This document shows, piece after piece, positions 13,855-16,212 of a stretch of 64,000 nucleotides of DNA; the first letter of the stretch is position 1, and each line of letters opens with the position of its first letter. The position numbers and the translations under genes are program-made. Source of the stretch: a virus (Duplodnaviria; Heunggongvirae; Uroviricota; Caudoviricetes); the IMG/VR virus record IMGVR_UViG_2850808358_000005. One strand, given 5' to 3'. Below the pieces are notes generated by a model. It saw nothing but the letters and a program-made list of their open reading frames with translations, had not been told where the DNA came from and did not search any database.

Positions 13855-14337
13855 CTACCCCCCAAGGCATTGGATCCTGATGTACTCCTGAAGCATTCTC
13901 AATGCTGTCTGGTCGCTGATGATTCCGTCCCGGATACCGAGAACGTTTCGTCCAGCAACTGGAGAGAGTTCGACGGTGGCATCATTGCCCATGCCGGAGG
14001 CGCTGGAGGTTTCGGCTGAGGATGGCACAGGGCATTTTCCTTTGACGAGCACCCGACCACCATTATCAAGCTTGCGCCGAAGAGCATCATTTTCAGCTTT
14101 CGCATTGGCTAACTCCTTCGTGTATTTAGCATCGAGTGCATCAGCAGCACGCTGGCGCTGCTGCATGTCAGTAATGGTTGCGTTCGCCAGCTTCAGTTCT
14201 CTTGCGTTTTTGTCGCGCTGCTCTTTGTAGGTAATGGCGTTATCACGGTAATGATTAACAGCCCATGACAGGCGGACGATGATGCAGATAACCAGAGCGG
14301 AGATAATCGCGGTGACTCTGCTCATTGCTGCCCCCAC
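13855..14337 (-). CDS. Rz: i-spanin Rz
   Basis: N-terminus [17 protein letters not shown]...[11 protein letters not shown] matches lambda Rz; directly downstream of the endolysin. Confidence 0.85.
13899..14105 (-). CDS. Rz1: o-spanin Rz1 (embedded in Rz, +1 frame)
   Basis: Lipoprotein signal ([16 protein letters not shown]) and proline-rich segment, embedded in Rz as in lambda. Confidence 0.7.
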
Positions 14338-14819
14338 AAACAGACTTCACGCTCAATCTCACGACGGGTCATCAGCCCTTTCCATTGCTTACCGCCAGCA
14401 TATGTCCAGCGACGTAGCTGGTCACATGCGCCTTTGATATCGCCCTGGTTTATTTTGCGAAGAAGCGTCGATGTTCTGAAATTGCCAGCGCCCACGTTGT
14501 AAACGAACGAGTAAAGAGCGCCGCGCGTTGTTTCCGGTATATCGACTTTGATGTACGGGTTAATTTGTCTGGCGACAGTGGCAAGGTCTTTATTCAGGAG
14601 AGCTTTGCATTCTGCTTCGGTATACGTTTTACCAGGCATGATGTCTTTTCCGGTGTGTCCGTGACATACAGTCCATACACCAATGATATCTTTGTATGGT
14701 ATGTAGCTGACACCTTCCAGACCATCGTTACCACCTGGGCCAGTGATTAACACAGATGCTATAGCAACAGCCCCGCCACCAATAGCAACTGCAACAGCCT
14801 TGCGTAATGATGGCGACAT
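14322..14819 (-). CDS. SAR endolysin (phage lysozyme, RrrD/R21-like)
   Basis: Near-identity to E. coli prophage lysozyme ([22 protein letters not shown]...); N-terminal signal-anchor-release segment. Confidence 0.9.
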
Positions 14820-15034
14820 TATTCACCTCTCGCAGCCTTACGCTTATCTTCTCTTATTTTGAAATACAGATTCGTCAGATAAGTCAGAAGCCCCAGAAGC
14901 AGACTTCCCAGCACACCAATCGCAGCCCACTGTGATGGACTGACCTGATCCAACCACTGCAAAAACCAGTAGCCGGCACTGCCGGCGGAGGTGCCGTAGG
15001 CAATGCCTGTTGATATTTTTTCCATCTGATACAT
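14819..15034 (-). CDS. holin (EssD/S21-like pinholin)
   Basis: 71-aa 2-TM protein [24 protein letters not shown]; immediately upstream of the endolysin. Confidence 0.85.
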
Positions 15035-15712
15035 ATCCCGCCCCCCGACAGACCTGTGCTATCGGAAAGAAAAAAGGCCATCAGCAAAACTCTGATGGCC
15101 TGAATCACCTTTACCAATATTGTATGAAAAAACACGCACGTCTAATTGACAATAATTTTCATTTCCATTAAAAAAGATCGCGTAGCATTCTTAATTCATG
15201 AGGAACTTTACCCGCCAGCAATCTGAGTAGCGAAAGCTGTTCATCCCCAATGTTTTTGCTGGCGGGTCCTTTTTTCTACGGTCCTCCTCCCCGGAGGGGC
15301 ATTTCATTATTTTTCTAATCATTACTGGTGAGAAGGCGGAAGAAAAAGCCAGTTCTTCGCCCCTAAATAACAGCATGATTCCAGTCCATGCAAAATCTGA
15401 TTTCCAGCTCACACATACCGAGCACTGTACAAAAAACCGCCAGCCAAGGCAGTTAAGAGTGTGTTCCCGGGGTTTGCTTAGAATATTTTGTAAGTTGTCC
15501 GAAGAGATATTTACAACACCAGAATGATGCATTATCAGTCCCCTGCCAGAGGTTCACTACGTAACCTGACCGACAATGCACCATTCTGGTGCTGAAAAAA
15601 GAGCACTGGAACTGCAACAAAACAACATCACAGAACAGGAGATGGTAAGGAGTCAGACATTCCCACACAATATTGTGTCAGTGCAAATAACAACCTTCGT
15701 CTCAAATCTCGC

Positions 15713-15787
15713 TGGAGCGGGCAGCGGGAATCGAACCCGCATCATCAGCTTGGAAGGCTGAGGTAATAGCCATTATACGATGCCCGC
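15713..15787 (-). tRNA. tRNA-Gly (anticodon UCC)
   Basis: Hand-folded cloverleaf: acceptor GCGGGCA, anticodon loop CUUCCAA, T-arm GGTTCGATTCC, encoded CCA. Confidence 0.8.
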
Positions 15788-15790
15788 ATA

Positions 15791-15866
15791 TGGTGCCGAC
15801 TACCGGAATCGAACTGGTGACCTACTGATTACAAGTCAGTTGCTCTGCCTGCTGAGCTAAGTCGGC
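15791..15866 (-). tRNA. tRNA-Thr (anticodon UGU)
   Basis: Acceptor GCCGACT/AGTCGGC, D-stem GCTC/GAGC, anticodon loop CUUGUAA, CCA encoded. Confidence 0.8.
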
Positions 15867-15868
15867 GC

Positions 15869-15945
15869 TGGCCCACCACCGAGGACTCGAACCTCGCACC
15901 GTCAACTTAGAAGGTTGATGCTCTATCCGGATGAGCTAGTGGTGG
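15869..15945 (-). tRNA. tRNA-Arg (anticodon UCU, reads rare AGA)
   Basis: Anticodon arm TCAAC-CTTCTAA-GTTGA; T-arm GGTTCGAGTCC; CCA encoded; phage argN/argO-like. Confidence 0.8.
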
Positions 15946-15946
15946 T

Positions 15947-16023
15947 TGGTGGCCCTTGCTGGACTTGAACCAGCGACCTGGCGATTATGAGTCGCTCGCT
16001 CTGACCAACTGAGCTAAAGGGCC
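15947..16023 (-). tRNA. tRNA-Ile2-like (anticodon CAU; could be elongator Met)
   Basis: Closely resembles E. coli ileX (GGCCC.TTAGCTCAG...GCGACTCATAATCGC...GGTTCAAGTCCAGC); anticodon loop CUCAUAA. Confidence 0.7.
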
Positions 16024-16111
16024 GGAGGCAGAATAATAACCATATGTCATCACATCTGCAAACTCATCTGACCACCAGCACGTTTAACGTCCTGTGCCGT
16101 TTTTCAGGTAT

Positions 16112-16133
16112 AAAAAAACCCGCATAAAGCGGG
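16112..16133 (-). terminator. rho-independent terminator between Q and the tRNA/lysis genes (tR'-like)
   Basis: Minus strand GCCCGCTTTATGCGGG followed by TTTTTTT. Confidence 0.55.
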
Positions 16134-16212
16134 CTCTTTCAAATGTCCATGTCTGCTATTCGCCTCGCGGTACAGCTTTGCGAAGCGTACAAGAATTGAA
16201 GCAGTTTTTACG

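Follow-up and report, generated by a model that had tools for sequence, protein, structure and literature searches.

The 64,000-nucleotide (nt) stretch of DNA analysed here, IMG/VR virus record IMGVR_UViG_2850808358_000005 (the window), is identified by sequence comparison as carrying two related lambdoid prophages, placed head to tail at one attachment (att) site, the sdsR/ryeA locus between pphA and yebY. The two prophages contain almost identical copies of a ~2-kb late-gene block, for which we favour the explanation that a mosaic block already common to both was probably homogenised in this genome, with copy A, in prophage 1, replacing the sequence of copy B, in prophage 2. The window corresponds to positions ~1,115,652–1,179,651 of GenBank CP026877.1 (the compared sequence L008 is 100% identical over 6.3 kb, and L016 gives coordinates that agree). 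An IpaH effector gene with NEL and LRR_TTSS domains at 34052–35767 indicates a chromosome of the Shigella or enteroinvasive Escherichia coli type.

Allele patterns point to conversion of copy B by copy A

Self-comparison of the window by BLAST placed the direct repeat at 14078–16232 and 51877–54031 (98.2% identity over 2158 alignment columns), with the starts of copies A and B separated by 37,799 bp. An earlier interpretation made from the DNA letters alone (the sequence-only reading) had described two near-identical, co-oriented ~2-kb lysis/tRNA modules 37.8 kb apart, a description that agrees with what we found: 14212–16195 and 52011–53994 align without gaps, 1978 of the 1984 positions being identical and 6 different, and the same four tRNA genes are present in both. 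Within the core of the block (Table 1) there are no substitutions at all, the sole differences being two compensating one-base insertions or deletions (indels) in a C/G homopolymer hairpin at 15289/15295. Chance cannot be the source of this repeat. Beyond the block, on the side of the Q-like antiterminator gene, the homology between the two prophages is weaker (16334–17635 versus 54978–56280, 93.7%; 18027–18445 versus 56792–57212, 94.4%).

The alleles of the block were compared among nine orthologs of prophage 2, recognised by linkage to ORF6N or trkG (L003–L007 and L009–L012, of which L011 and L012 are partial), and about nine DedA-linked copies of the prophage-1 type (L001, L021, L022, L024 and L027–L030, several of them partial). 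The two lineages share the block at ~99.5% identity and are distinguished by fixed sites at positions 14258, 14264, 14276, 14936, 16169 and 16175. Wherever these sites are covered, all nine prophage-2 orthologs have the B alleles and the prophage-1-type copies have the A alleles, with the exception of L027 at 14936. Copy B of the window, uniquely among the prophage-2 copies compared, has the A allele at six out of six sites and also shares with copy A the A-lineage polymorphism 14274G; its flanks (≤14212 and ≥16191) carry B-type alleles. Accordingly, over the 1978-nt core, the number of substitutions relative to copy A is 0 for copy B of the window, 1–2 for the prophage-1 orthologs and 9–21 for the seven full-length prophage-2 orthologs.

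The same IS600 element is found 593–595 bp from the same DUF7167 gene in L003–L006, L008 and L009, indicating that prophage 2 is an old resident and that its A-type core is the derived state in this genome. Since every one of the six sites has the A allele in copy B, we infer that copy B was the recipient. Gene conversion or a double crossover would have overwritten copy B with copy A sequence along a tract covering at least 14258–16175 and at most 14213–16190 (1.92–1.98 kb), and both ends of this tract fall at a sharp rise in the divergence between lineages. Both the direction of the conversion and its intragenomic origin are thus read from the distribution of alleles, and we infer them with the reservations given below.

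Tandem integration at the sdsR/ryeA locus

Prophage 1 extends from the start of the window to ~33.47 kb and is largely complete. Its first 24.7 kb match a prophage of E. coli FDAARGOS_944 with 99.4% identity over 89%, and its early region and 358-amino-acid (aa) integrase match a prophage that lies alone beside yebY in other genomes. Prophage 2 (~33.47–63.42 kb) is an old remnant riddled with insertion sequences (IS), in which IS600 has broken up the tail-fibre genes, the terminase has disappeared, the integrase open reading frame (ORF) is down to 283 aa and no repressor or replication genes are left.

The integrase (int) arms of the two prophages are direct repeats with 97.9% identity in the self-comparison, as the sequence-only reading had also noticed. 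The 24-nt core AAAAAGACCGAATACGATTCCTGT occurs exactly twice in the window, once in each arm, and its second occurrence (63400–63423) lies inside the SdsR(RyeB)/SraC(RyeA) bidirectional small RNA (sRNA) locus, placed by Rfam at 63394–63538, between pphA and yebY. By alignment, the junction at 33.4 kb combines an int-side arm, as in attR, with an ipaH-side arm, as in the attL of the single lysogen L013, a combination that indicates an attP-like hybrid site of the kind expected for tandem integration by the same integrase; as the attL of prophage 1 is outside the window, the junction was assessed from the 33.4-kb site and the attR core. The same int–core–CssrB–ipaH junction was found in an unrelated contig (L032, IMGVR_UViG_2690316286_000019, positions 1–3848), where the DNA between a point inside ipaH (window position 35257) and one slightly beyond attR (63432) is deleted and the two sides of the joint overlap by 10 bp. 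The existence of this derivative suggests that the tandem state has also existed elsewhere and decayed by deletion.

Several further features were observed around the junction. The homology of the int arms stops within the SdsR/RyeA sRNA genes, and both arms contain the RalA sRNA (the RalR/RalA antitoxin, according to Rfam). Directly beyond the attP-like junction, the left end of prophage 2 consists of the Shigella sRNA CssrB (33741–33923, minus strand) and the IpaH E3-ligase effector gene in full length; in single lysogens, the same ipaH adjoins pphA. Farther into prophage 2, a low-GC trkG-like gene of the TrkH family (49556–51292) adjoins its Rz gene and is truncated by an IS110-family transposase gene; in other genomes the trkG-like gene is full (502 aa) and is followed by the terminase.

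Alternative origins of the identical blocks

Homogenisation of copy B by its tandem neighbour has to be set against several considerations that weigh against it. The A and B cores differ in homopolymer length only, which is typical of long-read error, and polishing could homogenise a consensus; the tandem neighbour need not have been the donor, which may instead be an infecting phage or a further prophage-1-type copy elsewhere in the genome; the sample, 9 prophage-2 and ~9 prophage-1 orthologs of which several are partial, is small; the intact tandem junction is present in only one assembly among those examined, plus one derivative; and the promoter pR' was not located, the Q dependence of the block being an analogy only.

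The most substantial competing explanation, which we nevertheless regard as unlikely, is that the prophage-2 lineage received the A-type core earlier, from another element of the prophage-1 type or from an infecting phage, the identity of the two neighbours then reflecting descent from a shared donor. The DedA-linked block of the prophage-1 type is indeed very widespread (4343 blocks are indexed in the collection) and such elements abound in Shigella, the lambda att site being one place where they occur; moreover, 14274G is not private to this genome but is shared with L021, L024, L029 and L030. However, other prophage-1-type copies differ from copy A by 1–3 or more substitutions, whereas the two resident copies have 0 substitutions over 1978 nt, and the exact protein encoded by Rz of prophage 1 was found at one place only, this genome. 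We assign a distinctly lower probability to an artefact of assembly or polishing, whether a false duplication or a core made identical by reads that map to both copies. This would fit the two 1-nt homopolymer indels, which, as the sole differences in the core, suggest a long-read consensus with residual errors, and a literature search turned up no paper on assembly CP026877. It would not readily explain why all six or seven sites are shifted in one direction and inside the block only, why the att junction is structured exactly as tandem site-specific integration predicts, or why an unrelated contig contains a derivative of that junction. False duplication by the assembler, in particular, is very unlikely, because the copies reside in different prophages with lineage-specific flanks that differ on both sides, and each of these contexts recurs in independent assemblies of other genomes.

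Segmental duplication of one prophage, mediated for example by IS600 or att, followed by divergence from which the 2-kb block emerged as the least changed part, has hardly any probability left. Both prophages have the same overall order and orientation of genes, with three homologous blocks and with IS600-plus-int arms at equivalent places, but the structural and early genes outside the shared blocks are non-homologous, the Rz C-termini and Rz1 differ, and a PBSX-type terminase with DedA in prophage 1 stands against trkG with Terminase_2 in prophage 2. In addition, identity drops in abrupt steps (100%, then 94%, then none) and not at an even rate, and other genomes carry one prophage type without the other. 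Segmental duplication was rejected as the origin of the two prophages on account of the non-homologous flanks.

Homogenisation of a shared mosaic block from A to B stays the preferred explanation, and the repeat itself is genuine and correctly placed. It is ordinary prophage mosaicism, every component belonging to well-described families, and nothing in the locus alters current understanding; its value lies chiefly in annotation and assembly. The allele pattern does provide a clean example of exchange between co-resident prophages, the process thought to generate lambdoid mosaicism, which can be dated relative to the orthologs. In polylysogenic E. coli such as O157 Sakai, mosaic, mutually recombining lambdoid prophages have segments in common that are almost identical and end sharply. 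The co-resident prophages described here likewise share near-identical, sharply bounded segments; they differ in being in tandem at one att site and in having one block with an apparent directional conversion footprint.

A further small mosaic replacement lies at 17636–18026 of prophage 1. This 391-bp segment has no match in the FDAARGOS_944 relative or in prophage 2, which can be aligned to each other at 96.6% identity across the replaced stretch.

Table 1. Features of the two prophages, with positions in the window (B, equivalent positions in copy B)
Feature	Position	Strand	Basis or remark
Copy A of the late-gene block (prophage 1), substitution-free core	14213–16190	−	
Copy B of the late-gene block (prophage 2)	52012–53989	−	Prophage-1-type alleles at 6/6 lineage-diagnostic sites
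Rz (i-spanin), prophage 1	13855–14325	−	Pfam PF03245
Embedded Rz1, prophage 1	13899–14105		Outside the shared block
SAR-type endolysin, R21/RrrD kind, 165 aa	14322–14819 (B: 52121–52618)	−	Pfam PF00959
Class II (phage 21 S-type) holin, 71 aa	14819–15034 (B: 52618–52833)	−	Pfam PF04971 ('P21 holin S'), 1.5e-35
tRNA–holin spacer, 678 bp	15035–15712 (B: 52834–53511)	−	
tRNA array A	15713–16023	−	ARAGORN; Rfam
tRNA-Gly(TCC), array A	15713–15787	−	
tRNA-Thr(TGT), array A	15791–15866	−	
tRNA-Arg(TCT), array A	15869–15945	−	
tRNA-Ile2/Met(CAT), array A	15947–16023	−	ARAGORN; CAU tRNA of an ortholog is tRNA-Ile according to PGAP
Promoter-like TTTGCA-18-TATTAT, 10 nt upstream of the first tRNA	16033–16062 (B: 53832–53861)	−	Consensus match only
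Terminator-like hairpin with U-run, candidate tR', downstream of Q of prophage 1	16111–16141 (B: ~53910–53940)	−	Fold dG −18.4 kcal/mol, z −5.0
Q-like antiterminator, prophage 1, 184 aa	16213–16767	−	DUF1133 / phrog_753
IS600 copy 1	29693–30958	−	Target duplication GCT; extra base in slippery A-run fuses orfA and orfB (385 aa)
int arm, prophage 1	31300–33475	+	RalA sRNA 31700–31879; intact 358-aa integrase 32237–33313; att core 33447–33470
IS600 copy 2, opposite in orientation to copies 1, 3 and 4	36211–37475	+	Target duplication TTC
IS600 copy 3	38787–40051	−	No target duplication
Rz, prophage 2	51660–52124	−	Identical to Rz of prophage 1 for 42 aa, divergent afterwards
Embedded Rz1, prophage 2	51719–51904		
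tRNA array B, same four genes	53512–53822	−	ARAGORN; Rfam
Copy-B-specific cassette	54030–54860	−	Promoter/terminator scan, Rfam, Pfam, PHROG
ORF6N anti-repressor coding sequence	54030–54587	−	Pfam PF10543, E = 7.5e-20; phrog_2379 anti-repressor, full length, 2e-91
C4 antisense RNA	54639–54723		Rfam, 68.7 bits (gathering score 45)
isrK, with terminator	54750–54824		Rfam, 77.8 bits (gathering score 50)
c4-a1b1	54785–54837		Rfam, 52.9 bits (gathering score 46.7)
Promoter-like TTGACT-18-TATATT overlapping the stop codon of Q of prophage 2		−	Promoter scan
Q-like antiterminator, prophage 2	54857–55411	−	DUF1133 / phrog_753
IS600 copy 4, abutting the int arm of prophage 2	59990–61254	−	No target duplication
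int arm, prophage 2	61254–63428	+	RalA sRNA 61654–61832; 283-aa integrase ORF 62415–63266; att core 63400–63423

IS600 copies, instability and assembly

All four IS600 elements have the expected properties of this IS3-family member (~1264 bp, orfA of 100 aa, orfB of 272 aa and near-identity to the reference): they are 1265–1266 bp long, 99.6–99.8% identical to one another and 99.8% identical to elements annotated as IS600 by the Prokaryotic Genome Annotation Pipeline (PGAP), and they encode HTH_Tnp_1 and rve domains. The sequence-only reading was right about their identity and about the orientation of three of them, but had taken all four to be co-oriented, whereas the copy at 36211–37475 is inverted. 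The absence of target duplications at copies 3 and 4 is consistent with past IS-mediated rearrangement. As a separate matter, a GTG found on the inner flanks of these two copies was judged too weak, a 3-bp coincidence, and was set aside.

The extra base of copy 1 is at alignment column 943, in a poly-A/T run that is plausibly the orfA–orfB frameshift site, and the same fused ORF is called in other assemblies (L004–L006); such a fusion could reflect either a genuine constitutive-transposase variant or an error in homopolymer length. In copy 4, another one-base indel is located close to orfA. Copies 2 and 3, which have opposite orientations, bracket 1.3 kb of tail-fibre gene fragments (37457–38818), a piece that could be inverted by recombination between them.

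If direct repeats recombined, the DNA lost could amount to 37.8 kb between copies A and B of the block, to ~30 kb between the two int arms or between IS600 copies 1 and 4, and to 9.1 or 21.2 kb between other IS600 pairs; IS600 copy 2, being inverted, would bring about an inversion instead. The kilobase-sized repeats (the 2.0-kb block, the 2.2-kb int arms and the four 1.27-kb IS600 copies) could thus in principle remove 9–38 kb, including ipaH, or invert DNA. For the block itself, the deletion anticipated by the sequence-only reading did not show up: its product, which would connect DedA and Rz of prophage 1 to ORF6N, was absent from all 10 distinct ORF6N contexts examined, a weak negative from a small sample. 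Other genomes (L004, L006, L013 and L032) have IS600-associated and other deletions at this locus. The fragility of short-read assembly that had been foreseen, by contrast with the deletion, is visible in the collection, where most DedA-bearing contigs are shorter than 10 kb and several contigs end in or beside the block (L011 and L012 inside it); it is plausible that the repeats break such assemblies.

McDonough and Butterton reportedly described in 1999 that the IS600-flanked stx region of Shigella dysenteriae 1 amplifies and deletes through recombination between direct IS600 copies. That region, too, is a defective lambdoid Shigella prophage with direct IS600 repeats around late-region cargo, and provides a precedent for the predicted instability. 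The present locus is a different one, without stx and with one IS600 inverted, and no product of amplification or deletion between the repeats was seen for it.

Content of the shared block

Located on the minus strand, the block represents the part of a lambdoid late region that is nearest to Q. After Q come a terminator-like hairpin, a promoter-like site, four tRNA genes, a spacer, the holin and endolysin genes and the first 42 codons of Rz. The promoter-like site lies where the annotation of Stx2 phage 06-3462 has a putative tRNA promoter, 'pT'. All four tRNAs read codons ending in A (AUA, AGA, ACA and GGA). A scan of copy A for pR' gave only a TTGACG over the Q stop codon with a poor −10 element, which is unconvincing, and the sole strong promoter-like site detected in copy B is the one before isrK.

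The array resembles the tRNA island ileZ-argN-argO of Shiga toxin (Stx) phages (933W-type, for example 06-3462), with ~77% DNA identity including the putative tRNA promoter. Both lie downstream of Q (in the Stx phage, also of pR' and tR') and precede the moron slot and the lysis genes, and both open with a CAU tRNA annotated as tRNA-Ile followed by tRNA-Arg(UCU). They differ in tRNA content, with four here (Ile2, Arg, Thr and Gly) as against Ile and two Arg in the Stx phages, and in the slot downstream of the tRNAs, which is occupied by stx in the Stx phages and by no stx or recognisable gene here.

That slot, the tRNA–holin spacer, includes terminator-like hairpins at 15454–15435 and 15101–15075. 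Its ORFs of 113 and 71 aa had no match in Pfam or PHROG, Rfam returned nothing, and PGAP calls no coding sequence there in an ortholog; the spacer was therefore treated as non-coding. The idea of a hidden cargo gene in it was dropped on the same searches.

Two other observations concern the neighbourhood of the array. A QueH-like epoxyqueuosine reductase gene (18487–19173, minus strand), with a function in tRNA modification, is located in the nin region of prophage 1, ~2.5 kb from the tRNA array; the label comes from the annotation of the FDAARGOS_944 ortholog and a Pfam call on L020. Hok/sok loci are present at 18254–18429 and 57024–57196.

Lysis genes and antitermination

In both copies, the holin ORF ends at the start of endolysin gene R. 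The endolysin gives full-length matches to PDB entries 4zpu (RrrD) and 3hde, with ~95% identity and E ~1e-107, and its N-terminal hydrophobic segment, similar to a signal-anchor-release (SAR) segment, is conserved with RrrD; from its sequence it is classified as the SAR type, with predicted release from the membrane. Protein alignment places the left edge of the repeat after Rz codon 42; from there on, each prophage has its own Rz C-terminus and its own embedded Rz1 lipoprotein. Both Rz1 ORFs have lipobox-like ...VVGC motifs, and Pfam called Rz1 on the L030 ortholog. The gene order S-R-Rz(Rz1) is that of the lysis cassette of phage 21 and DLP12, and over S-R-Rz the DNA here is 91.6% identical to that of phage 21. 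The difference from that cassette is that here Rz lies only partly, by its 42 codons, within the shared block, leaving the Rz C-termini and Rz1 prophage-specific.

On the other side of the block, the Q-like genes of the two prophages have ~94% nucleotide identity, with the final ~40 codons different. By analogy with related phages, the block is presumably expressed under Q antitermination. On induction, RNA polymerase modified by Q would read through the terminators; this read-through would supply the tRNAs for late translation, and holin, endolysin and spanin would then lyse the cell.

An anti-repressor cassette specific to prophage 2

Next to copy B, 946 bp (54032–54977) replace 101 bp of copy A and include the different Q C-terminus (approximately the last 40 aa). 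The gene content of this segment identifies it, by sequence similarity, as an isrK/C4-controlled ORF6N anti-repressor cassette of the Gifsy-1 antQ-isrK-anrP type (Table 1). The Gifsy-1 locus is organised as antQ-isrK-orf45-anrP (Hershko-Shalev et al. 2016, PMC4825925). As in Gifsy-1 (PMC4825925) and in the c4-icd-ant region of P1/P7 immI, a promoter, isrK with its terminator, a small ORF and the anti-repressor gene directly follow the Q-like gene. Unlike in Gifsy-1, the cassette is present twice in prophage 2, and the small ORF of the first copy, which stops ~24 nt before the anti-repressor start, does not overlap it.

The ORF6N gene, which has terminator-like hairpins on both sides, had been proposed to occupy, between Q and tR', the position where Stx phages carry stx. 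The domain assignment stands, and with hairpins on either side a place between Q and tR' is possible, but the equation with the stx position does not hold. The annotated order in Stx2 phage is Q, pR', terminators, tRNA promoter, ileZ-argN-argO and stxAB, and the slot equivalent to that of stx is therefore the tRNA–holin spacer; the ORF6N cassette is on the Q side of the tRNAs, between Q and the array, whereas stx is on their holin side.

Gifsy anti-repressors inactivate the lysogenic repressor, and by this analogy the anti-repressor of prophage 2 could conceivably inactivate the repressor of its intact tandem neighbour, with the converted lysis-tRNA block co-expressed and the remnant serving as a trigger or helper module, a scenario to which we give little credence. 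If it were true, conversion would keep the two prophages compatible and the defective prophage 2 would not be inert.

A paralogous cassette, ~77% identical, was observed at 57299–58100, with the RNA set (c4-a1b1, isrK and C4) at 57899–58100 and the ORF6N gene at 57299–57979; in this second cassette an in-frame fusion joins the small ORF to the anti-repressor downstream of it. Finally, the early region of prophage 1 contains a match to the Rfam family sRNA-Xcc1 at 25760–25849 (67 bits, gathering score 53), near toxin-antitoxin genes of the PhdYeFM/ParE type.

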